Notes under the pieces: generated by a model
What the model was told of the DNA's origin: nothing
The model's database searches: none
What the model saw: only the letters and a program-made list of their open reading frames with translations
In this document: positions 19,927 to 33,370 of the stretch, piece by piece
Layout of the letters: each line of letters opens with the position of its first letter
How positions within the stretch are numbered: position 1 is the first letter of the stretch
Sequence record: NC_041937.1
Strand: one strand, 5' to 3'
Length of the DNA: 64,000 bases
Source of the DNA: Escherichia phage V18
Made by a program: the position numbers and the translations under genes

Positions 19927-20460
19927 ATGACTTGTGCTAGAAAACCTGATGAACAACGTAACGCCTACGATGAGTATGTGACACCGGAGTGGTGTGCAGA
20001 AGGGCTGTATGACCTTATTCCGTTCCCAGAAGACTGGACCTACTTAGAGCCTTGCAGGAATAGTGCCTCAGGTGTGTTCTACTCCCGTATGCCGTTAGGA
20101 TCTGCATGGGGAGAAATCCAAGAAGGTGTTGACTATCTGAATACAGAATACAACCATGTTGACTGTATTATCACCAACCCACCATACAGTTTGGCTCGTG
20201 AGTTTGTAGACAAGGCGTTGAAAGATGCTGACGTAGTTATTATGCTTTTGCGTCTTAATTTTCTGGAAAGCAAAGCCAGATTTGAATGGTGGCTTGATAA
20301 TGCACCTACCACTGTGATCACAATATCTAAGCGTCCATCTTTTCAATCAAATGGCAGAACTGACGGGCAAGCATATGCATATTTTGTGTGGGATAAGAAA
20401 AACCGTTTAGGCTTGCCGCCATTTATGTGGTTGGCACCACCAGAGGTAGACCTGAAATGA
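19927..20460 (+). CDS. small N6-adenine DNA methyltransferase (phage Dam-like)
   Basis: 177 aa; catalytic motif CIITNPPYSLAREF (NPPY). Confidence 0.5.
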   Translation: MTCARKPDEQRNAYDEYVTPEWCAEGLYDLIPFPEDWTYLEPCRNSASGVFYSRMPLGSAWGEIQEGVDYLNTEYNHVDCIITNPPYSLAREFVDKALKDADVVIMLLRLNFLESKARFEWWLDNAPTTVITISKRPSFQSNGRTDGQAYAYFVWDKKNRLGLPPFMWLAPPEVDLK

Positions 20461-21013: not shown

Positions 21014-21415
21014 ATGAAGATTGAGATCACCAAAGAAGGCAAGAAAGTGTCTGGCGACTATGCAACAGTAATTCGGGATTTAATGTTTGAAGCCACCAAG
21101 ATCGGTACATCTAAAGTTGGTCAAACTGTTAGTGTGCAAAGTAATATCGCCACAGGAGAGAAGGTATTCATTGTGGTCAAAGGGCAGGATCCTGTGGAAG
21201 GAACAGTGGGCCGAGGAGGTTACCTGTGCATTTCTGAAGAGCCTCGTATGCTAGTGGCTGACTCCGCTACTATAGGTGGGAAACGTGTGTGCGAGGCGGA
21301 TGAGGTAATGATTATCCAGCCTGTTGACCCAGATGATCCAGCAACTTGGGTGGTAGGAAATGAAATCTTCTCTTTAGAAGAGTTATCCTTCCCAGCCCCG
21401 CGCTCTGTTCAGTAA
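21014..21415 (+). CDS. hypothetical small acidic protein (MKIEIT N-terminus group)
   Basis: 133 aa; N-terminus resembles 25218, 27368 and 30797. Confidence 0.35.
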   Translation: MKIEITKEGKKVSGDYATVIRDLMFEATKIGTSKVGQTVSVQSNIATGEKVFIVVKGQDPVEGTVGRGGYLCISEEPRMLVADSATIGGKRVCEADEVMIIQPVDPDDPATWVVGNEIFSLEELSFPAPRSVQ

Positions 21416-21454
21416 TAATTTATCTTACCAGGGACGGTAGAAGCAGGAGGTAGC

Positions 21455-21688
21455 ATGAAAGTTAAATTTCTTACAGATTTAGGGTACCCTTCCTTGGTTG
21501 ACTGTGTTGGTAAAATTGTGGAAGCAAAACGGCTATCTGCAAACGAGAATGTTGTCCTGGTTAAAGGGAAGGATTTACTAGCTGCAGGTGCAGAGTCTGG
21601 CAGGATCTCTCCTGATTATATGTATTACCTATCTTTAAGTAATCTGCCAGAGCGAGGCGGTAAAGGCCTTGAAGTTGTGGAGGAGTGA
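21455..21688 (+). CDS. small acidic protein, paralog family A (DL[IL]AAGA motif)
   Basis: 77 aa; MKVKFLTD… KDLLAAGAESG …EVVEE. Confidence 0.45.
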   Translation: MKVKFLTDLGYPSLVDCVGKIVEAKRLSANENVVLVKGKDLLAAGAESGRISPDYMYYLSLSNLPERGGKGLEVVEE

Positions 21689-22072
21689 CAGGTATGCTTC
21701 TGATTAACTGGGAAGACCTCTATGGGCCTTTATGGGAAAAGAGCATGTATTTAAAATGGTGCGTTAATTTAGGGAGGCCTTCCAGTGTTTCAAGCCATGT
21801 TTATTGAGATGCTATCTGGGGTATTGTTACTGGTAGCCATCTTAGGTGGTGCAGTTCTGATGTATAACTATCTTGAAAAAGGAGACAGCAATGGTAAAAA
21901 ATAAATCTTTAGAGCAGGCTGAAAACCTTCTCCACGAGCTGGTAAAGGAGTGGAAAGTTGAATACTCAGATTTTAATGCACGAGAGGGTGAAGATTATTG
22001 GCCTACGGAGCGCTCAGAGGGCGAATGGTATCAAGATTTTATAGAGTGGTTATATCAGACGTGCGATGAGGG

Positions 22073-22537
22073 GTGACGATGTTTGTTAAATATGTAAAAA
22101 CGTGCCTCAACAGTCTTGGCAGAGAGCATTGGTACACCTTGCTTGAAAAAGGGGAAATTTTAACAAAATCTGGAAAGATAACTTTTATACATAGTAAAGG
22201 TAAAGACCCGTCACGACTTGTTATAGATGATTACGTTACAGGTGTGACGTTCGAGGTCTCTGTGGAGAGGTTAATACGCAGAGCTGGCGGCCCTTATGAC
22301 CGAAGAGAGTATGTTTTCGATTCCGTTACAGAGATGGGGGAGCATCCGTCTTTAATGTTCAGGATGGTAATCAGAGATATGAGGTCATCTATAGATAGGA
22401 TTGTAAAGGACATTAAGGAACCTTTTAGAGTAAAAGTTAAGAAGTTTTTCGATTCTAAGATTAACATACTCGCCGTTGCACTAGGTGTAGTTCAACTTCT
22501 GTTAATTTTGCACTATTTTGAACTACTATTTAAGTAG
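22073..22537 (+). CDS. hypothetical protein with C-terminal transmembrane segment
   Basis: 154 aa; C-terminal ILAVALGVVQLLLILHYF hydrophobic helix. Confidence 0.35.
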   Translation: MTMFVKYVKTCLNSLGREHWYTLLEKGEILTKSGKITFIHSKGKDPSRLVIDDYVTGVTFEVSVERLIRRAGGPYDRREYVFDSVTEMGEHPSLMFRMVIRDMRSSIDRIVKDIKEPFRVKVKKFFDSKINILAVALGVVQLLLILHYFELLFK

Positions 22538-22599
22538 TAGTTGAGATATGGCACAAAGGATGTGCCATAGTGAAATAAACTAAGAAAGAGGTAGAGAGA

Positions 22600-22947
22600 A
22601 TGCCAAAGATTAAAACGTTATTACTGTGGGTAACTGTTTTAGCTTTTATAGGGTACTGGACTTGGGAAACTGAATTAAAAGATATAGGATATACCAGTCT
22701 TGAGAGCAAGGCGTGCATTGGCATAACCGATGCGTTCAGGCAAAATGCTATGGATCACGAATGTGTTGATGCAGATATAGATGAGAAACTGTCTAAGGAC
22801 AAAGATTTTTACCATGGGCATGCTTTACTTGATAGTGGTGACACTGTAGAGTTCTGGTCGTGGTTTCGTGAAGATGGAACAATAAAAACAGCAGTAAAGA
22901 TCTCTAACAAAGAGTTAATGCTGTTGCAGCAAAAGGAGGCTCAATGA
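22600..22947 (+). CDS. hypothetical protein with N-terminal signal/TM segment
   Basis: 115 aa; LLLWVTVLAFIGYW hydrophobic N-terminus. Confidence 0.35.
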   Translation: MPKIKTLLLWVTVLAFIGYWTWETELKDIGYTSLESKACIGITDAFRQNAMDHECVDADIDEKLSKDKDFYHGHALLDSGDTVEFWSWFREDGTIKTAVKISNKELMLLQQKEAQ

Positions 22948-23484
22948 TCTGGATATCCTATGCTGATGGCACCATGCTGTATACTGCAGGTACCAGATAT
23001 GAAGTTCAGGAGAACGATAAAAAATTTATCGTAAAAACATTTGACAAGGACGACAACCTTTTGCTAGAATTGACTTACAAGGTTGGAGAGGTATCCAATA
23101 TCCAATTGGATTGTGGTCATAAAGATAACCCACTCAAAAAACCTGGAATAGGCAAGGCTTCAGAAGAACGTTTGTCTCGTATTGCAGAAAGCGTTTCTAC
23201 ACAAAAATCTAAGAAGGGGACTAGAAAATGAAAAACTTACGTTTTAACACTGGCGCAATGGAAGAAGCAATATTCTAAACCAGGCGGGAGGGTTTTATGA
23301 AGCACTATTGCCTGTCTGGTAGAATGGGTACAGATTGTGATTGGGTTTTCTTAAAACTTGTCAGCATTCGAGAGTTCATCCCAGAGGAAGAGCAAGAAAG
23401 CGAGCTGATGTCATGGATCAACCATTACGGTAACACTTTTCGGCATGTTAAGGTAGAAGAGTTGCCAAGCGAGGCTGATTGACT

Positions 23485-23574
23485 ATGATTGCATCAATAT
23501 TAACGTTTATGGGTGGCGTGGCATTCGGATTCATTGTTTGCCTGTTTATAGTGATTATGTCTATGCGAGGCTGA
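23485..23574 (+). CDS. 29-aa hydrophobic peptide (putative)
   Basis: ATG at 23485; MIASILTFMGGVAFGFIVCLFIVIMSMRG; fills the gap between 23297..23482 and 23578..23949. Confidence 0.25.
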   Translation: MIASILTFMGGVAFGFIVCLFIVIMSMRG

Positions 23575-23945
23575 ATTATGAAACTTTTTGAGTGGTTTAA
23601 AAAGTTTAAATATAAAGCTGTAGCCATCGTGCCGTGGTCAATTCAGTGGGTTGATGAAGGTGGTCTACCAATACCTGGTGACAAAGATACTGGGTACTGG
23701 ATTATGATGGAGAACGGGTTTGGAAAGCGAAAGTATACGTGCACAAACTCTACTCGATCTGCCACTAACTGGTCTAAATTCTACTGGGGAGCCAACGAGT
23801 GGGGAAGATACGCCACCAAATCAATGGCACTTATTGGTATAGCAGAGTACATTGCAGCCAGAGATAGGGTTGGAGACACTTATTACTATACTGCGGACGA
23901 TATTCGTAACAGTGTTTACGTCCCACAACCACCTGATGGAGACCG

Positions 23946-24173
23946 TTGATGAAAGTTAAAGTTTTAGATTCAAGCTTCTATATTGGTCAGGAGCCCTTAG
24001 TGGGGAAAGTGTTTACTGCTGTCCCTAACGAAGATTACCCCGACCTTTTAAAAATAAAAGGGGCAGATCTTATTGCCGCTGGTGCATCTCATGAATGCTT
24101 TGACAGTCAGTGGACCTACAACTTTGCCCTAGGTGAGGATGTAGAGATAGTGGAGGACGATCATGAAGGTTAA
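23946..24173 (+). CDS. small acidic protein, paralog family A
   Basis: 75 aa; MMKVKVLD… ADLIAAGASHE …VEIVEDD. Confidence 0.45.
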   Translation: MMKVKVLDSSFYIGQEPLVGKVFTAVPNEDYPDLLKIKGADLIAAGASHECFDSQWTYNFALGEDVEIVEDDHEG

Positions 24174-24417
24174 AATTCTTGATTCTAACGTCTACTTGGG
24201 ACAATCCTTCCTGAAGGGAAAGGTAGTTCCTGCGGTATACTTTGAAGGGTTGCCGTGGGATGATCCTGTGCGGCAACATCACAGTTATGTAGGCCACAAC
24301 GTAGTGTTTATCTTAGGATCAGACCTGATCGCTGCTGGTGCACCGGAATATTATTTCGGGGAAGAATCCTATTATGCCTTTGGGGCAGGGTCAGATGCAG
24401 ATATTGTAGAGCTGTGA
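24163..24417 (+). CDS. small acidic protein, paralog family A
   Basis: 84 aa; MKVKILD… SDLIAAGAPEY …DADIVEL. Confidence 0.45.
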   Translation: MKVKILDSNVYLGQSFLKGKVVPAVYFEGLPWDDPVRQHHSYVGHNVVFILGSDLIAAGAPEYYFGEESYYAFGAGSDADIVEL

Positions 24418-24429
24418 TGGGTAACCGTT

Positions 24430-24825
24430 GTGAAAAATAAACTGTTCAAAGTTACAATGAAAATTCGCGGAGCTTGGAGCGTAAAGCAAGGGCGTATCCC
24501 AGAATTTGAGAAAGACTTCTACGTAGTCTCCACCTCGGAGGAGGCTGCATGCTGGCAGGCTGGCTATGCCTATGCAAGAACCTGGTACGAAGGATACCAG
24601 ACTGGGGGCTATGACGGAGAAATTATCAGCAAGGGTGTGGAAGAAATTAATGTGTTGACAAGTAAAAATTTTGTTATAGTGCATCCAGATTCCAGAGTGA
24701 AGCATTACTGGAATGCCAGAACAAAAACTTGGACACCGTTTGCAGATTCTGCTACACCACTTTTAAACCAAAAAGCTCTTGACTCTGCCCCGAGCTACGG
24801 GGTTGTTGAAGAAAAGCTAGACTGA
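24430..24825 (+). CDS. 131-aa protein, paralog family B
   Basis: …VIVHPDSRVKHYWNARTKTWTP…; paralog of 26635..27030. Confidence 0.45.
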   Translation: MKNKLFKVTMKIRGAWSVKQGRIPEFEKDFYVVSTSEEAACWQAGYAYARTWYEGYQTGGYDGEIISKGVEEINVLTSKNFVIVHPDSRVKHYWNARTKTWTPFADSATPLLNQKALDSAPSYGVVEEKLD

Positions 24826-25139
24826 AACAGTGAGGTGCCACTATGATGGATTTAGTTCTGAATATTGATAACGCAGGGGAGTTTAAAGACGATGGTGTAA
24901 CAAGCATTGACCAACCATGCTCTGCCAAGATTGACTCAAAATGGGCCTACAAGTTTGACGGAGAGATCTTCGCAAATGATGAGAAGGTTGTAGATGCTGC
25001 AGCCATTTTGAACGCTCTAGGGTACGACCCTGTGAATTCTTTGATCAAGGATCCTGTTGAGTTTGCAGAGTATGTTCGAAAAATGGCAGATCTTGCTGTA
25101 GATATTTTAGATACTATCGATAATAAGCTGTAAAAACTG

Positions 25140-25168
25140 TTGACACAACGCTTCAGATTTAGTATCAT
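25140..25168 (+). promoter_or_regulatory. sigma70-like promoter
   Basis: TTGACA 25140-25145, 17 bp spacer, TATCAT 25163-25168. Confidence 0.4.
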
Positions 25169-25217
25169 TGTTTTCAAAGAGAGATAGTTATTCCCTCTTC
25201 CTTAAAAGGAACACGTT

Positions 25218-25538
25218 ATGCAAATTGAAATCACTGGCAACAATGTAGAAATCACAGAAGGTATGGTATCTTTTATTTCCCGCAAAATGTCCAAGCTGGA
25301 GCGTTTACATCCCTCTGTCAACTATGCACGTGTGAGTGTAAAAGTTGAAAATGATCACCAGGAAGTTATGGCGTTCATTTTTGACAATTCTGGAAAAGAA
25401 GTTATTGCCAAAGCTAAAGGCAGTGATGCTTACGAGGCAACTGACCGTATGGTAGATGTTGCAGCACGTCAGCTGGCTAAATGCGGTGGAAAGAAAGGTA
25501 AGGGGAAAGGCAAAGTAAAGATTGACTTTGGAGAATGA
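25218..25538 (+). CDS. hypothetical protein with lysine/glycine-rich C-terminus
   Basis: 106 aa; MQIEITGNN…; C-terminal GGKKGKGKGKVK. Confidence 0.35.
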   Translation: MQIEITGNNVEITEGMVSFISRKMSKLERLHPSVNYARVSVKVENDHQEVMAFIFDNSGKEVIAKAKGSDAYEATDRMVDVAARQLAKCGGKKGKGKGKVKIDFGE

Positions 25539-25675
25539 GGTGCTACAATGGGTGTGATTAAGAAATTAGTCACAAATGTAGAGATTGCATGCTTTGAAAT
25601 TATGTTTGCAATCGCAGTTGTAGTTAATGTGTTAGGTTACGGCTATTAATATCAAATAATTGAGGAGACCTCTAA

Positions 25676-25945
25676 ATGAAAATTAAATTATTCAAAACTG
25701 AGCTGGCAGACAAAAACTGTGGACTGGTTGAAGGCATGATTGTTGAAGCACAACCAGTGGACTATATGAAGGTGGTTCGTGATGCCCTAGGTGAAGGTTT
25801 TGATCTGATGGAGCCAGCTCTGCGAGAAGATGTTATCGAGATGGCTAAAAAGCACACACCTGAAGGTTTGGTGGTGTTTGTTGCACCGGGTAACGGAGAA
25901 GAGTTGATTGTAACTCCGGATGTGTATGAGATTGTAGAGGAATAA
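25676..25945 (+). CDS. small acidic protein (family A-like architecture)
   Basis: 89 aa; MKIKLFKTE… ending YEIVEE. Confidence 0.4.
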   Translation: MKIKLFKTELADKNCGLVEGMIVEAQPVDYMKVVRDALGEGFDLMEPALREDVIEMAKKHTPEGLVVFVAPGNGEELIVTPDVYEIVEE

Positions 25946-26276
25946 TCCTGCTTGGATTAGCATACTTCCTCGATAAGGAAGATTTGTAATTATTTGTGGG
26001 AAAGGAATCCCAATCTCTTACCAGAGGTGATACTATATGATTGTTTATTTTAAAACTTCAGGTGGATACCCTGATTCTCAAAGCTTGATCGGAAAAACGT
26101 GCACAGCATACTCACCTCTTGATGAGGAGGTAAGCGATATTCTACGAAATATGTATCGGATTGACCCCCAAGAAGCTTTGATCAAAACCTTGTATTTGTC
26201 AAGGGCTCAGATATGAAGTCTTTGGGAGCATTCCCTGAAGCAGATGATGATGCCGTTTATTCGTTCATGACTCCTT

Positions 26277-26636
26277 TTGAAGCTATGGTTGTTGGGTGAT
26301 AATATGAAAGTACGCTTTATTGGTGAAACAATTCCTGTGCATCTCCGGTCTCCTGAGGATTCTGCAGATCTTGCATCTCAAAAGGCGAGAGGTTATGATA
26401 AGAAAGTAACCTCAACCGATGTAGTGCTTGAGGCTACTAGCTACCTGACCCTGCTGCATTCTTTAATCATTATGGGTACTATTTCAGCAACCTGATGAAT
26501 ATCGGTGAGCTTGTATTTATTAGTGGTGGAGAAATTGTTAGCAAGCTCGGTGGCGATCCAGATGTCTTTCATGAAACCTGTCCTTTTGCATTTGTGGTAG
26601 GTTCAGATGTGGAAGTTATTGAGGAGGTGCGGTAAT
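26277..26636 (+). CDS. family A paralog, apparently frame-disrupted
   Basis: N-terminus MKVRFIGE… in ORF 26277..26495; C-terminal half LVFISGGEIVSKLGGDPDVF…VVGSDVEVIEE in a small ORF 26496..26636 in another frame; mirrors 24163..24417. Confidence 0.35.
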
Positions 26637-27030
26637 GGTAAGCCTATACCGTGTCGAGTATAGCTCGGATACTGTATACAACGTAAGAAGCAAAGATCGC
26701 AGCGACAGAGTGCAAGAAATGTATGTTCTTGCCGACAGTCCGTTATCTGCAGCGTTCAAGGCAGGGGCTCTTGCATCTCGTTGGAAATTTGAAGGTGGAT
26801 CTTTCTATGAAGAAACCCTTGAAGATTCTGTTGTTATTTCTTCTGTAGAGGTTTCAGATGACTACGAAGGGAAAAAGTTCGTAATGCGGCACCCACACAG
26901 CAATATTGCGTACTACTGGGACGTTCTGAACAACGAGTGGACCCCAGATCTTCAGAAGGCTACTGTGCTAACACCGTTTTTGGCAGATAAGTTCCCACCA
27001 GAAGGTAATTTATCTGCACTGTTTCAGTAA
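26635..27030 (+). CDS. 131-aa protein, paralog family B
   Basis: …VMRHPHSNIAYYWDVLNNEWTP…; paralog of 24430..24825, same length. Confidence 0.45.
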   Translation: MVSLYRVEYSSDTVYNVRSKDRSDRVQEMYVLADSPLSAAFKAGALASRWKFEGGSFYEETLEDSVVISSVEVSDDYEGKKFVMRHPHSNIAYYWDVLNNEWTPDLQKATVLTPFLADKFPPEGNLSALFQ

Positions 27031-27048
27031 TTTTCTTGCACACAGGTG

Positions 27049-27077
27049 TTGACAACGCCAACCCTGTGTGAAATAAT
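27049..27077 (+). promoter_or_regulatory. sigma70-like promoter flanked by inverted repeat
   Basis: TTGACA 27049-27054, 17 bp spacer, AATAAT 27072-27077; CACAGG…CCTGTG inverted repeat brackets the -35 element. Confidence 0.35.
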
Positions 27078-27106
27078 ACCTTCATCTTAACAAGACAGGA
27101 GACCGA

Positions 27107-27367
27107 TTGATGAAGATTAAATTGAAAAACCTTGAAACGGCAGAGATTCAGGACGGTGTTGATTTCCGTTCTAAAGATGGTGACATCTTAGAGGTAAATA
27201 TTCCAACCTACGATCTGATCAAAGGTTTTGGCAACGTCCCCGAGGAAGGTATCGCAGACGTTCTTCTAATGTTAATCGTTAGTGGGACAGTGTTCTTGGG
27301 TGAAGGTGAGAACGCTATTGCAATCCCAAGCCATTTTTATGAAGTAGTTGACGAAGAGGTGCTGTAA
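27107..27367 (+). CDS. small acidic protein
   Basis: 86 aa; MMKIKLKN… ending YEVVDEEVL. Confidence 0.4.
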   Translation: MMKIKLKNLETAEIQDGVDFRSKDGDILEVNIPTYDLIKGFGNVPEEGIADVLLMLIVSGTVFLGEGENAIAIPSHFYEVVDEEVL

Positions 27368-27718
27368 ATGAAAGTAGAAATTACTGGTTTTGATGTGAAT
27401 GCGGTTCCGGAAGATATTTTAGCTAAACTTCCGGAAGGTTTTGGTAACGGTGTTGTGGTGGATGCTGTTCCTCCTACCAAAGACATTCTGCTGCAGTATG
27501 GTGTAGCAGAGGAAGATGTCGATAAAGTTCTTACAATGATGGCAATCGATCGTGTTGTCGTTGTTAAAGGTCTCGATAATTTTGAGAGTGATCCCCTGAT
27601 TATTCGTGGAGATGACTACAAAATCATCGATAATGAAGGCCAAGAGTTCTATGAACCTTGTGCAGAAGATATTCTTAACTTATTACTGGAAGCAGGCACC
27701 GAAGAGGAGGACGAATAA
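27368..27718 (+). CDS. small acidic protein
   Basis: 116 aa; MKVEITGF…; acidic C-terminus GTEEEDE. Confidence 0.4.
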   Translation: MKVEITGFDVNAVPEDILAKLPEGFGNGVVVDAVPPTKDILLQYGVAEEDVDKVLTMMAIDRVVVVKGLDNFESDPLIIRGDDYKIIDNEGQEFYEPCAEDILNLLLEAGTEEEDE

Positions 27719-28047
27719 TGAAGATTGACCCGTTACTGAAGGCTCGTGCAGAAAAAGCGTACACCATTAAGCTGACCACCCTGGTTCCTGCTTGTCATCC
27801 GGATGTAGGTTGGCCCGAAGGTCTGGTAGAGGGGACTGTAACAGCCGCATACCTTCCTAACATCAAATACCTTATGGAAATCTTAGAGATGGATGAGGAA
27901 ACTGCAGAACAGTTCCAGTTGGATATGAAACAAAGTGGGACTTTGGTTATTCACGGGTGGTATAATACTAAAGATGCAGAAGACCCTCTGGTAACTTCTA
28001 ATCTGGCATATGAAATCTTAGGGCCTTTGAACCTGGGGGAAGACTAA
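27718..28047 (+). CDS. hypothetical protein
   Basis: 109-aa ORF, start overlaps the preceding stop (ATGA). Confidence 0.35.
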   Translation: MKIDPLLKARAEKAYTIKLTTLVPACHPDVGWPEGLVEGTVTAAYLPNIKYLMEILEMDEETAEQFQLDMKQSGTLVIHGWYNTKDAEDPLVTSNLAYEILGPLNLGED

Positions 28048-28334
28048 TGAAAGATCTGGTTAAGATTAAGATTAAAGATACCAATGGAGAACTCAGCCAT
28101 TTTGGAATTAATGATGGTGACGAGCTGATCGCACACTTGCCTACCAAGGAAGTTGTAAGCAAAGCGGTTGCCGGAGAAGAAGCTGCAATGCAGGCTGCAG
28201 GTGTGGATGAAAACTATGTAGCCATGTGCATGTGCCGAGATCAGGTTGTTCTGTATAAAGCGTATCGACCAAACGGAGCCACGGAGTGGCTTGTATTCCG
28301 ACCTGAAGGATATGAAATCTTAGAGGCACTATGA
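28047..28334 (+). CDS. hypothetical protein
   Basis: 95-aa ORF, start overlaps the preceding stop. Confidence 0.35.
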   Translation: MKDLVKIKIKDTNGELSHFGINDGDELIAHLPTKEVVSKAVAGEEAAMQAAGVDENYVAMCMCRDQVVLYKAYRPNGATEWLVFRPEGYEILEAL

Positions 28335-28714
28335 TAAATCTTGCCAAGGTTGCAATGGTCCTGCTAATTATTTGCTGGTCAGTAACCTTAACACTGTGTC
28401 TTGTATTTCAGTAAGGTGCTTATATGAACATCCTGATGTGGGTTGTAGCAGTGGCGTTTGTTGCATGTTTTTGCTGCTGGGTTGCGGTGAGGATTTCTGT
28501 AGCTACCTTCGGAAGTTGGGGTTCTCAGAGTGGGATATTAATATCCTTTCTTTTCGCAATGAAACAATCTCAGCCGCCCTGCTCTGTAAGAAATTCAAGT
28601 GGGAACCTTGTGAGGTCATGAACTATCTAAGAACGGGGGATATCCCTGAAAGATTTAAAAAAGTTCTTGACGGCAAGGATAAATGATAGTATAGTGACTA
28701 ACAAGAGGTGAGGA

Positions 28715-28855
28715 ATGACTGATTTTACTGAAGCTTTGATGATGGCCTTGTCTGTTTTAGCGCTATCGGTATGTTTTGGGGCGTTATTCACATCTCTGGT
28801 TAAAGTTTTACATACAGTATTATTACCCAAGGAGCGCAGTAATGACGAAGATTGA
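28715..28855 (+). CDS. 46-aa membrane peptide (putative)
   Basis: ATG 28715; MTDFTEALMMALSVLALSVCFGALFTSLVKVL…; overlaps the start of the next gene. Confidence 0.25.
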   Translation: MTDFTEALMMALSVLALSVCFGALFTSLVKVLHTVLLPKERSNDED

Positions 28856-29093
28856 CTTGAATGCTGGCGACCATGTTGTTGTCAAATGCATCGGAGATTA
28901 TCTTGGATTCACAATCGGCAATACTTACGAGGCGGTAGTGTCGAAGGTTTATCATGATAAAGTCCTCAGTCTTGTATTTGACTGCGATGATGATGGGGAT
29001 GACCGATACGTCTGTGAGGTGCTGGCACGAGACGATAGTGAAGACCAGAAATTCCTGGTTATTGAACTGAACGGTATTTTTGTAGAACGTTAA
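28842..29093 (+). CDS. hypothetical acidic protein
   Basis: MTKIDLNAGD… preceded by AAGGAG at 28829-28834; within ORF-track entry 28776..29093. Confidence 0.4.
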   Translation: MTKIDLNAGDHVVVKCIGDYLGFTIGNTYEAVVSKVYHDKVLSLVFDCDDDGDDRYVCEVLARDDSEDQKFLVIELNGIFVER

Positions 29094-29121
29094 TTTAAAA
29101 CAACATAAGGAGACTCTTACT

Positions 29122-29427
29122 ATGGCTAAATCTAAAGTTGAACTGTTCACCTCTCTTCCTTCTGACACTGCAGAACGTGATCGCCTTCGCAAAACAATCG
29201 AAGAACTGGTGGAACTCCAGCTTCAGATTAAAGACCTGAAAGATGCCATCAAGGATATCATTCTCGTTGAGAAGCAGGATCATCTATATTCTCCTAAATT
29301 CATCAAATCTCTGGTGGCTACAGAGTTTGATATCCGCTACGAAGCTGAAAAACGTCGCGCTAAGATTGAAGAAGAGGTTGAGCACATGTCTGAGGCAGAC
29401 ATTCTGTTCAAACGCTCTGTAGAATAA
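29122..29427 (+). CDS. hypothetical protein, predicted helical/coiled
   Basis: 101 aa; charged heptad-like sequence; followed by terminator. Confidence 0.4.
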   Translation: MAKSKVELFTSLPSDTAERDRLRKTIEELVELQLQIKDLKDAIKDIILVEKQDHLYSPKFIKSLVATEFDIRYEAEKRRAKIEEEVEHMSEADILFKRSVE

Positions 29428-29433
29428 TGACAA

Positions 29434-29460
29434 AAAGAGGGGCCCAAGCCCCTCTTTTTA
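29434..29460 (+). terminator. rho-independent terminator
   Basis: AGAGGGG-cccaag-CCCCTCT followed by TTTTT. Confidence 0.55.
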
Positions 29461-29482
29461 CTATCTATGAAGGAGATTTGAG

Positions 29483-29809
29483 ATGGGTATACCGATCACT
29501 GTAAAAGAATTGAATGAACGTGATGCAGGCGGTCTATGGCCTGCACGAAAAATACGCTGCGTCTATATGAAAGAGAATCTTGAACATCTTGATCAACAGA
29601 TAAAGGTCGGCGATATTTTCGAGGTCTTCTATTCCAATCGGCGCAACTGGGAAACCATTCAGCCTTCTGGTTTTGTTCTTGCCAAACTTGACACTGGAGA
29701 AGTGATTATCCCTGGGTTGGATATTGTCTTCGAAATTATCCAGGAGTGGGATCCGGATAAGATTAGATACGAAGAACTATTCGGTAAAGGTATTATCAAA
29801 CCTGTGTGA
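29483..29809 (+). CDS. hypothetical protein
   Basis: 108-aa ORF. Confidence 0.35.
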   Translation: MGIPITVKELNERDAGGLWPARKIRCVYMKENLEHLDQQIKVGDIFEVFYSNRRNWETIQPSGFVLAKLDTGEVIIPGLDIVFEIIQEWDPDKIRYEELFGKGIIKPV

Positions 29810-30796
29810 GGTGGATTATGTCTACAAAGGCGGCTAAATACTCTTACATGCCATCAACCTCTGCAGAGGTAGACTTTAGTTTCGATGTGTTTCCACTGTT
29901 TGAGGTGGTTCTGGCATACCCAACAATACTATCTACTCCTGAATCACTTGTGCCTGTTAAGTTGCAGAACGCTATGCATTCTATGCACTACAACAATAAA
30001 TGTAGGCACAGATGGTGTCAAGACGAGGAAAAAGATTTGGATAGTTTGAGGGATTTTGACAGTCACCTTTTGACACCTTTCAGCTACTCCAACCTTGATA
30101 AGCCTCATGGGTATAGCAAAATATCAAATTTAAGACACCTAGGACGCTCTGTGGCGTCCTTTTCTTTATCTGGTGCACGATTGCATACCTTGGACAGATA
30201 ATCCCGTTACAGAGCGTTTAAGAGCTTCCTACAAACAAATCTCTCTTTCGAGCGTAGCGAGAACGCACGTCCGTTTTGACCCAAATCACCATACGCTCGG
30301 ATTTTAACCAAACCCTCGCGGCGTTTCTGTTGACACATTACCGCTACCGTGATAGTATCCACACAGTTTGGAGAATATGGAATACACAATGAGAACATTG
30401 TCTGAAGTTTTAGTGGTGATCCTGATGATCATTACGTCTATAGCGGCTGTTGCCGGAATACTCACGGGTGGAACATGATCAACACACATGCATCTGAAGG
30501 AGTGACGACATGTAGCCTGGATGAGCCAGTTAAAGAGGAAAACTTAGATTCTGATGACTCTTCATCTTCGTCCCAGACAGATCCTGAGGCTGATGACCTA
30601 ACGTGGGAAGACATCGTAGACATCTGGTTCTCTATTATGCCTGAGCACGAAGAGTTCAGAGGTGGTAGACTATGAAGCACCGAGCCCACACAGATTCCTC
30701 ATGCTAAAGCATGGCCTGAAGAGGCAAACGTGCATAATTCCAGCGTATTGGAACGTATAAAACCCTGTTCACACTCTCATTTCCAGAGGAGATTTC

Positions 30797-31012
30797 ATGA
30801 AGATAGAAATATTTGGTGGAGCTGACAACACTCGTGGCCTGATTTACCTTGAATTTGATGAATCATACCTGCCAGAGGTGTTAAATATAGACTCTGTTGC
30901 TGAGGCTTTGGGAGTAAACCCTAAAGAACTCCACTCTTGTGCTGAGATCGATGGTTGGGAAGAGACCATGAACATTGATTTCAGTGAAGTGGAGGATGAA
31001 CCGCTAGACTGA
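30797..31012 (+). CDS. small acidic protein, last gene of the plus-strand arm
   Basis: 71 aa; MKIEIFGG…; acidic C-terminus. Confidence 0.4.
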   Translation: MKIEIFGGADNTRGLIYLEFDESYLPEVLNIDSVAEALGVNPKELHSCAEIDGWEETMNIDFSEVEDEPLD

Positions 31013-31362
31013 CGCACAATTAGCTGCCCGGCTAAAGTGCTGGAAGCACCTATAACACATCTTTCAACTAAATTTCCTACCACCACAATCACTTACCTCC
31101 CGCACATGACTGTTTGCTTGTTTAGTGAGCAGTCATGCCTTGACATTCTTGCCTATCCTGATAAAATTAAGTTCTTCTCTTTTCTTTTACCGAGTAATTC
31201 GGGTTTTCTGTTCTCTTCGGTTTGAAGGGGTATGGAGATACACCTGAGTGAACAGGGTGAACAACCGAACCATTAGCTATGGCATTAGCATGGCGAAGCG
31301 GACGGGTGACGAAAGAGGGGCCGGAGGACACCAGTCACTGCCATATGATATATGGGTGATAA

Positions 31363-31902
31363 CCTGAAGAGTCTGAATAAGTGTTTAAGTACCAGTCAGA
31401 GGAAAAGGTGAATGGTAGCCGAAGGGGGGAGGGGGGTTTCTTGTATCTTTAATTTGTATATTATGTATACACTTGTAAACCAATCTAATCTGAATCTGTT
31501 TACCACACAAAGCGGATAGAGACAAATATTGCCTATTAAACTTGAATTATTTATAGAAAATACCACAACACCCCTTAAGTCTTTGATTTACACACAAATC
31601 CTACAGATATTCAACCTCCATATTTAACATACTTGTAACATATTCCATACTCTACCTGTCTGATCAATTTCCCAACTACATTCTCATATTTTCCCTGTCT
31701 GTACTACCCCTGCCCCGCCGGGAGTCCCGTCATATCTGGCTTTCCAGCAAATATCACACCCACAAATATCATTGCCTGAAGAGGGTTTCATCCCATAATA
31801 CCTGCCTTACCTGAAGAGCGCTTCATACACCACGTAAATTTTTTAATTGACCTCCCCCTGCCCCTCCGGAGAGGTTGGCTTTTCCCACACAGACCTGAAG
31901 AG
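31363..31902. repeat. dispersed CCTGAAGAG repeat family in the inter-arm non-coding region
   Basis: Exact 9-mer at 31363-31371, 31775-31783, 31810-31818, 31894-31902; also CCCTGCCCCGCCGGGAG (about 31708) and CCCTGCCCCTCCGGAGAG (about 31853). Confidence 0.5.
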
Positions 31903-32495
31903 TCAGCCAGAAATATCTGAATAGGCCCGATCTGCCCAGTCAGGAGCCAGTAGCGACTGGAGTGCTGCCAGGCGGACGGAATGGGAATACTTCTCATTCT
32001 TATAACAATTCTCAAATATCGAGGCAGTGAGAGAAATTAATAGGCCAGGCCGTTCACACAGTGGCACAACATTTGCAACCTATCCTGTGGGGATGAATGA
32101 GAATACCTATCATTGTGAGAACTATTATCATTACGGGCAATTTAACATAATACCCATTATGCGCACCACTGGCGATACATACAGGGATTGATACCATGAG
32201 TTACAGTTTACACACATAACAATTATATTTCTTACTATTTGTGTGGGATATAGTTAGCAGCCAATAGATTAGATATTGACCTGTAGACTTCCAACCGTCT
32301 GGACGTCTAAACGCCCACACACCAAGGGTTATACATACATCGCTGAATGTAAACAGGGCCGCAAAAATGCTACCATACCAGTTTGTAAATTTTTCATGCA
32401 GCACTTGACAAAGAGGAGAAAAACTTGTCTGACACAATGTCACACAATATGACACTTTACACTGGACACACTAGGCACAAAAAAAAAAAACTGCA

Positions 32496-32720
32496 GTGAC
32501 TAGGTCACCCCTTCAGGTGTTTCTATGACATAATATAAAAGCAGGGCAACTATTACAAATCTAAAGTTGCCTTGCTTGTTATGTCATGATTAACTAAATA
32601 CAAGGCAACTATGATCTGATTAATAGTTTGCAGACAAACTATCACGGGGGTGATGGTTACTGCTTTTATATTATGTCGCGACTCCGTCGCGCCATGCCAT
32701 TCGTTTGCATAGTTGCCTTA
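32496..32720. repeat. iteron-like locus: nested inverted repeats and GGCAACT repeats (candidate origin/operator)
   Basis: Palindrome GTGACTAGGTCAC 32496-32508; 18-bp perfect inverted repeat GACATAATATAAAAGCAG 32527-32544 vs 32660-32677; CAAGGCAACT(T/A) at 32601-32610 (+) and 32564-32574 (-); AAGGCAACTATG at 32602-32613 (+) and 32708-32719 (-). Confidence 0.55.
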
Positions 32721-33370
32721 TTGTTACAGATAAAATAATTGTATTGTTAATTATTTCTTATCTTTCTATTAGTCATCTAATGATTCCAGTTAGTATAGTA
32801 ACGTATAGTAAACATTAGACGACTAAATATTTCTCTGTTTATGATAACTCACCGTAATAATTTCGGACTGTTTACGAAAAATGTTGACACCCTGGCTGAT
32901 TTATGTTATGCAATTTAAACGAATAATTATTTTATGCAGGTATTGACTATTCCGTTATTCTATGGTTGGAATAAATACTTAGCAGGCTATAGAATGGTGA
33001 GCGTACGTAAATTCTGAGATCTGTCGGCTATAGTTATACCCGATTTTTCACGTAGAACACGCTTTCGATGCTGTGTAAGTGTATGACTTATAAAGATTTT
33101 TAGTTGTTGACAAGATATTGGAGATGTGCATCAGGTTAAAATTTGTGCAATAGCGGCATTACGTGCACTTTTGGGAGAGAAAACGGGTAAAAATGGACTT
33201 GCTACCACACAATGAAAAATTATGCAATAGCTATTTTACATGTATGTTTGTACAGTGCGGGCAATTGATGGCTCGTCAATTATTCCACTTGCCAGGTAGG
33301 GCCGTTTATGGTAGGGGGAAGAGCAGACAAAAAGAAAGGGGCCTAAGCCCTTGATAATTCAGTTAAAAAA

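Follow-up and report, generated by a model that had tools for sequence, protein, structure and literature searches.

What the densely packed small genes of large lytic phages encode, and how such arrays come about, is a question raised by a ten-kilobase block in the genome of Escherichia phage V18. Small early "host-takeover" gene clusters are known from T4, from T5's pre-early genes and from the SPO1 module. These clusters are dense, encode mostly acidic proteins, are specific to their lineages and lie behind host-type promoters. The block studied here occupies positions 21014-31012 of a 64,000-nucleotide stretch of record NC_041937.1, which we call the window. An earlier note on its sequence had proposed a phage early region of small acidic genes with paralog families and a duplicated two-gene unit. 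Here, we describe three ancient paralog families, termed A, B and C, a gene order A-A-B that occurs twice and a predicted SH3-like fold for family A, and we weigh what the encoded proteins might do.

The phage origin of the block is borne out by GenBank, where more than 110 phage genomes match region 21014-31012 over its full length at 90-97% identity, all of them Vequintavirus. These rV5-like Escherichia coli myophages, e.g., pangalan, CM1, rV5_ev168, CarlMeissner/Bas48 and FV3, are among the coliphages isolated most often and find use in cocktails for biocontrol and therapy. The block is a conserved accessory-gene region of this genus. Nearly every gene in it is labelled "hypothetical protein" in the matching records; the recurrent exception is a gene labelled ribosome hibernation factor or "sigma-54 modulation".

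Three families of small paralogous genes

The gene set compared comprised about 33 plausible plus-strand open reading frames (ORFs) of the block, on which blastp was run all-against-all (33 ORFs) and which were searched against 38,880 PHROG profiles. In addition, hidden Markov models (HMMs) of families A and C were built with one member left out and run against 514 sequences consisting of the relatives' proteins and decoy ORFs from the window. Twelve of the roughly 33 plus-strand genes fall into three families, with five members in A, two in B and five in C.

Family A is founded on three proteins for which a shared N-terminal MKVK, a central DL(I/L)AAGA and an acidic C-terminus of the form E(I/V)VE(E/D) had been pointed out: A1 (21455-21688, 77 amino acids), A2 (23949-24173, 74 amino acids) and A3 (24163-24417, 84 amino acids). 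For A2, the ATG at 23949 is a likelier start than the TTG at 23946, with which the mechanically called ORF begins, and the start of A3 overlaps the stop of A2 by 11 nt. The resemblance is real and goes far beyond chance: blastp connects 21455 with 23946 (E=1e-6) and 23946 with 24163 (E=1e-14), and A1, A2 and A3 all give full-length matches to the profile of PHROG 5009 (E=8e-36, 2e-38 and 5e-32, respectively). The C-terminal part of the motif was drawn too strictly, since A3 ends in DIVEL.

A disrupted fourth copy had been suspected at 26277-26636. This is A5 (26304-26635), in which the window lacks one T after 26440, splitting a gene of 110 amino acids that is intact in relatives. A5 belongs to PHROG 13661 and is recovered by the family A HMM at E=1.6e-15; the C-terminal piece of the broken gene, ORF 26495-26635, still matches 24163 in blastp (E=1e-3). 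The earlier count of three or four members missed a fifth, as the neighbouring ORF 26037-26216 is a fragment of A4 (26037-26299), likewise broken in the window and intact with 87 amino acids in relatives. The intact form (MIVYFKTSGGYP...NLVFVKGSDMKSLGA...YSF...) matches the family A HMM (E=4e-7) as well as phrog_5009 (E=1.2e-4), and its orthologue in CM1 is the second-best structural match in BFVD to the family A model described below. In the leave-one-out searches the omitted A member was always top of the 514 sequences (E=2e-14 to 9e-6, with A5 at 9e-6). PHROGs keep A4 (13920) and A5 (13661) apart from A1-A3 (5009), whereas the combined profile evidence leads us to group them as one family of five members. 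Its hallmark, MKVKLL..GY.G..VGKVV.A...I.G.(D/E)LI..GA...F....Y.F....E(V/I)VE, keeps glycine, alanine, hydrophobic, aromatic and acidic positions and holds no catalytic-looking set of residues.

Family B consists of two proteins of 131 amino acids, B1 (24430-24825) and B2 (26635-27030), both of which carry the pattern HP(D/H)S...YW...WTP that had been reported for them. Aligned from end to end, the two are 28% identical (blastp E=2.6e-8), and both are full-length matches to PHROG 7379 (E=8e-72 for B1 and 2e-66 for B2). Three further leads were followed and dropped. A WW domain, considered for the YW..WTP segment, found no Pfam match at E<=1, and the C-terminal half of the family B model has predicted local distance difference test (pLDDT) values of 37-54. 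A match of B1 to a prophage cytosine-methyltransferase-like protein amounts to 9 bits and is attributable to chance, and a multi-gene cassette common to the block and lambdoid prophages was discarded as only family A is common to both.

A third family, C, was missed in the earlier note. Its five members are C1 (25676-25945, 89 amino acids), C2 (27110-27367, 85 amino acids from the ATG at 27110), C3 (27368-27718, 116 amino acids), C4 (27718-28047, 109 amino acids) and C5 (28047-28334, 95 amino acids); together with those of A and B, all twelve genes lie on the plus strand. A jackhmmer search converges on these five genes. In their alignment, (M)KIKL close to the N-terminus (C4 and C5 have it internally) is followed by G..(E/D)G.v.A..P, an inserted helical segment, a strand of the form vvv and P..YE(I/V). 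When left out, each member again came top of the 514 sequences, with E-values of 3e-5 to 4e-4 (3.6e-4 for C1) and of 0.022 for C4, the weakest member. The most acidic protein of the family is C3, with an isoelectric point (pI) of 4.05, 29 aspartate and glutamate residues and a net charge of about -21. PHROGs place the C members in one group each (11868, 12359, 12155, 12457 and 12794), all of "unknown function".

Across the three families, the window proteins match their PHROG profiles end to end (E=1e-32 to 1e-79, "unknown function"). With these matches and the "hypothetical" entries in more than 110 GenBank genomes, the genes as such are already catalogued. The paralogy among the groups and the repeated A-A-B order are unrecorded in PHROGs and in the rV5 paper, which mentions neither these genes nor paralogs (PMC3606486). 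Searches of the window proteins of families A, B and C gave no Pfam match at E<=1 and no NCBIfam match, and a PDB sequence search with the family profiles returned nothing below E=0.2 except a 25-residue match to a designed protein. The statement that no function can be assigned holds for A, B and C. It had overlooked the gene at 25218-25538 (plus strand), which encodes a homologue of the ribosome hibernation factor HPF/RaiA (S30AE family): residues 3-89 match Pfam PF02482 at 56.7 bits, above the gathering cut-off of 23.7, in agreement with annotations in relatives. It is the sole gene of the block with an assignable family. The description of the gene products as small and acidic fits most of them (pI 4.0-5.4) and fails for B1 (pI 7.8) and several other block genes (pI about 9).

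Repeated gene order and constraint

Family A followed by family B had been said to occur twice, implying a segmental duplication. Permutation of the 33 genes supports the repeat of A-B (P=0.019), and the longer order A-A-B also occurs twice (P=1.5e-4), as A2-A3-B1 (23949-24825) and as A4-A5-B2 (26037-27030). The inferred duplication is upheld, with real paralogy and a duplicated multi-gene unit, and is better described as an ancient duplication of A-A-B. Direct DNA repeats in the block do not exceed 36 nt and amount to short segments that code for MKVK and G.DL(I/L)AAGA; because no longer repeat remains, we consider the duplications ancient. A5 has A3 as its sole detectable paralog match, and an insertion between strands 2 and 3 occupies an identical position in the two, which fits duplication of the unit as a whole. 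A2 and A3 are 50% identical, a similarity that points to later tandem duplication or gene conversion. Within the units the genes are tightly coupled, with A3 and B1 lying 12 nt apart and the start codon of B2 overlapping the stop codon of A5 (TAATG). Family C is laid out differently, as a four-gene run and one separate member. The families arose by ancient tandem and segmental duplication, in which the A-A-B unit was copied once.

Natural hybrids of these genes were also encountered (P0007, P0026 and P0042). One kind combines the N-terminus of A2 with the C-terminus of A3, another a prophage-type N-terminus with a C-terminus of the A2 type, and a fusion of B1 to the downstream 96-amino-acid gene is also among them. 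In both A hybrids the junction coincides with the conserved DLIAAGA motif, which suggests recombination between paralogs at this site.

Selection was assessed by the ratio of nonsynonymous to synonymous substitution rates (dN/dS) between CarlMeissner and the divergent FV3 (91% identity), in which every A, B and C member has equal length and no stop codons. Values per member range from 0.02 to 0.16, and the pooled values are 0.08 for A, 0.05 for B and 0.08 for C; the methyltransferase and ClpP-like protease genes have similar values of 0.03 and 0.04, respectively. FV3 and MaxBurger alike carry all 12 genes, with unchanged lengths. Low dN/dS and presence in FV3 identify them as real, constrained genes; they are conserved genus genes under strong purifying selection rather than rapidly turning-over cargo. 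As a separate observation, MaxBurger (L007) has naturally lost about 1.9 kb corresponding to window positions 22073-23949, with roughly seven small genes, and has kept A, B and C. That isolate, at least, can do without the seven missing genes.

These data bear on the suspicion that the motifs are chance or compositional artefacts, or that the ORFs are not real genes. The proteins are short, pairwise blastp within family C is weak (E 0.013-0.28), and hhalign between families A and C reports a probability of 3% with a 15-sequence profile and of 13% (E=0.002) with a 59-sequence profile, all of which could be taken in its favour. It is contradicted by the independent PHROG assignments, by the rank of the omitted member in every leave-one-out test, by the low dN/dS of every single member and, as set out below, by a confident structure model of family A and by the occurrence of homologues in phages and prophages that are unrelated. 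Chance is already refuted for families A and B, and as an explanation of the whole it is extremely improbable.

Lesions and surroundings in the window

Some of these genes are damaged in the window itself. Compared with four relatives, the window alone carries 1-nt deletions after 26176, 26440, 28506 and 30102, a 2-nt deletion after 30365 and three in-frame deletions of 3-12 nt. The genes broken by small deletions are A4, truncated by the deletion after 26176 to ORF 26037-26216, A5, a gene for an 87-amino-acid membrane protein (28424-28686) and, at its 3' end, 29806-30201. In each of the four relatives compared, A4 and A5 are intact. Given the strong purifying selection on the orthologues, the best reading of the clustered single-base deletions is sequencing error or damage of very recent date; they do not mark old pseudogenes.

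Three larger deletions accompany them. About 805 bp are missing at junction 21726-21727, where relatives carry a gene for 174 amino acids and small genes; about 144 bp are missing at 23251/23252; and about 211 bp are missing at 23762-23765, which fuses two genes in frame into ORF 23578-23949. None of the three deletions occurs in the four aligned relatives, and two of them create in-frame fusions (21685-21807 and 23578-23949). The more than 110 full-length relatives all span over 1 kb more than the window across the deletion region, the junction 21726/21727 is absent from IMG/VR, and the fused 123-amino-acid protein (23578-23949) is not on record.

Consensus scans, which yield predictions only, place strong sigma-70-like promoters on the plus strand upstream of the first A-A-B unit (23462-23489), of the HPF/RaiA homologue (25140-25168), of C1-A4-A5-B2 (25522-25549) and of C2-C5 (27049-27077, with 11 of 12 matches and a TG extension), and a further one at 28667; phage Gotham has predicted promoters annotated at the same sites. 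The HPF/RaiA homologue, with a predicted promoter of its own, sits between the two A-A-B units. A predicted bidirectional terminator at 29430-29461, a 14-bp GC-rich hairpin with runs of T and A at its sides, would close this sub-block and is likewise annotated in Gotham. The proposal of an early region is compatible with these predicted promoters through the block, which fit early or middle expression driven by the host RNA polymerase. The rV5 paper describes host-type promoters spread over the genome (PMC3606486).

The block lies downstream of genes for a PhoH-like ATPase, a ClpP-like protease and an N6-adenine methyltransferase (19927-20460) and ends near 31 kb with a switch of coding strand and of GC skew. 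At this switch, about 2.3 kb (roughly 31012-33370) are without a convincing ORF, and the interval showed neither a tRNA or Rfam family nor a tandem repeat; over the whole window, too, scans for tRNAs and Rfam families gave no match. A "non-coding" box corresponding to this interval is drawn in the rV5 paper (PMC3606486). Within the block, the gene at 22073-22537 (154 amino acids) bears the name "HNH homing endonuclease" in part of the records, whereas other records have "putative structural protein". No Pfam match was obtained for it, it belongs to PHROG 7821, a virion structural protein, and the HNH label looks wrong. Eighteen GenBank records (MG0656xx) named "Campylobacter phage", with C. 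jejuni as host, share about 97% identity with this Vequintavirus, probably through mislabelling or contaminating coliphages.

A predicted SH3-like domain and its possible roles

Structure models cover families A and B. The AlphaFold2 model of A2, computed from a 15-sequence alignment, reaches a pLDDT of 89.6 and a predicted template modelling score of 0.78 and contains five strands and a short helix formed by the conserved DLIAAGA. The strands are antiparallel, build a small barrel and superpose on SH3, KOW and PsaE structures. According to this model, family A is a stand-alone SH3-like five-stranded beta-barrel of about 70 amino acids. It shares 4-25% identity and no sequence relationship with SH3, KOW (Spt5/NusG, L24), PsaE and the integrase C-terminal domain, and the helix G-x-(D/E)-L-I-x-x-G-A after strand 3 sets it apart from these known SH3-like barrels. 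In line with this, 59 diverse family A members have no Pfam match at E<=0.01, which places them outside the KOW and SH3 families of that database, and no relative among NCBIfam models or PDB sequences either; the BFVD matches to the model are small uncharacterised phage proteins.

A word-indexed search for family A returned 37 clusters and an exhaustive HMMER search of 1.84 billion representatives gave 79 at E<=1e-3, so that the family is rare, though real. Beyond Vequintavirus, lambdoid E. coli prophages, phage mEp013 and Vibrio phage CHOED have it; the distant members whose clusters were looked up all come from short metagenome contigs. In CHOED (L009, 3557-4409) an A domain is situated between DNA polymerase and 5'-3' exonuclease, in frame behind an HNH endonuclease, with a second, divergent family A gene after the first; this arrangement is either a real fusion or the result of a stop codon lost after insertion of a homing endonuclease. 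Two or three A domains share one polypeptide in P0037, P0099, P0102, P0117 and P0136. One A domain is fused to DUF3310 (P0127), a SaV-like domain; SaV is an early, host-toxic protein of lactococcal phages that is sensed by AbiV (PMC8306868).

The reading we favour, with roughly even confidence, takes A, B and C as constrained, ancient paralog families, family A as SH3-like and the proteins as presumptive binding modules. More tentatively, and at somewhat less than even confidence, we propose jointly that the modules are non-enzymatic, that adjacent A pairs are hetero-oligomeric and that an A pair may work with B. The proteins would be made early to mid infection from host-type promoters and would bind host or phage proteins without an enzymatic role. 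Adjacent A paralogs (A2 with A3, A4 with A5) possibly form hetero-oligomers, since single polypeptides of distant relatives contain two or three A domains. Each pair may further act together with the B protein encoded beside it and translationally coupled to it; A3 and B1, like A5 and B2, are tightly coupled, which suggests A-A-B as a functional unit. Protein targets are favoured over nucleic acid because of the acidic character of the proteins and their few conserved basic residues.

Several points weigh against this reading. The fold match is generic, and SH3-like barrels bind nucleic acids too. In lambdoid prophages the A homologue lies between antiterminator Q and holin, which is late-operon and not early territory. 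The family B model has a pLDDT of 58.5 and is too poor to trust, and the DUF3310 fusion is a single metagenomic protein. The evidence for hetero-oligomers and for a partnership of A with B consists solely of gene adjacency and domain fusions, and the literature searched holds no experiment, transcriptome or interaction data on the A, B or C genes.

The earlier note had pointed to host-takeover or anti-defence genes, which is a guess, and to a test for DNA-mimic folds. Ocr and ArdA, mimics of this kind, are small, acidic proteins encoded in early regions, elongated and highly charged. On an anti-defence account, which includes DNA-mimic anti-restriction, every paralog would counter a host immune system of its own. 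In favour of this, the proteins are small and most are acidic (pI 4.0-5.4), C3 has a net charge of about -21, and the genes lie in a promoter-rich accessory block; paralog diversification suits multiple targets, and one distant A relative is fused to the SaV-like domain. This single fusion (P0127) is the link to the lactococcal SaV/DUF3310 proteins, with which the window proteins have in common that they are small early phage proteins; none of the window proteins carries DUF3310. DNA mimicry fits family A poorly. Small size and acidity are shared with Ocr and ArdA, whereas the family A fold is a globular beta-barrel of much lower charge density, with 13-20% aspartate plus glutamate and net charges of -1 to -10 (about -1 for A1 and -6 to -10 for A2 and A3). 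The charge and shape of Ocr/ArdA-type mimics are thus not found in family A; C3 is highly acidic. Arms-race genes are often fast-evolving or variably present, whereas the genes described here are invariably present and strongly conserved. Moreover, Vequintavirinae are reported to be "exceptionally susceptible" to restriction-modification, seemingly without effective protection (PMC8594841), which bears indirectly on protection from type I systems, and the literature searched contains no anti-defence work on Vequintavirus. Fold, charge and this susceptibility lead us to disfavour DNA mimicry and anti-restriction for family A. Taken as a whole, the anti-defence reading seems unlikely to us.

Slightly less likely again, in our view, is a regulatory role in which the barrels of family A, KOW- or SH3-like, have the ribosome, RNA polymerase or RNA as their binding partner and act with the HPF homologue. 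The position of the HPF gene between the two A-A-B units is compatible with it, the KOW-like fold matches of family A are a weak hint, the low-confidence family B model resembles eL20/LX, and the CHOED A domain follows an HNH endonuclease in frame between DNA polymerase and 5'-3' exonuclease. However, no KOW motif or other Pfam match was obtained, the proteins have an acidic character and conserve few basic positions, the resemblance to eL20/LX comes from the untrustworthy B model, and the CHOED "fusion" starts with a canonical internal MQVKL and may be a separate gene.

A bolder version of the favoured binding-module reading would make the two A-A-B units paralogous three-protein complexes, each an SH3-like heterodimer, as a split counterpart of the two-domain tandem proteins known from other sources, with a 131-amino-acid B protein, directed at two variants of one host machine. 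The translation apparatus would be a possible target because the HPF homologue is embedded between the units. We regard this version as a long shot; if true, family A would be a new, uncurated phage adaptor domain.

Set beside the clusters of T4, T5 and SPO1, the block is a similar dense array of small, mostly acidic genes behind predicted host-type promoters. It differs in that no homology was found and in that about one third of this conserved accessory region is made up of three internally duplicated families. An ordinary, lineage-specific expansion of small genes in a large lytic phage is well supported. The five-member family A, family C, the A-A-B order and the SH3-like fold were not found in the rV5 paper or the searchable literature. 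Together, the constraint on these genes, a distinct SH3-like domain that has no Pfam entry and the repeated A-A-B unit make for a small, concrete set of targets within Vequintavirus.

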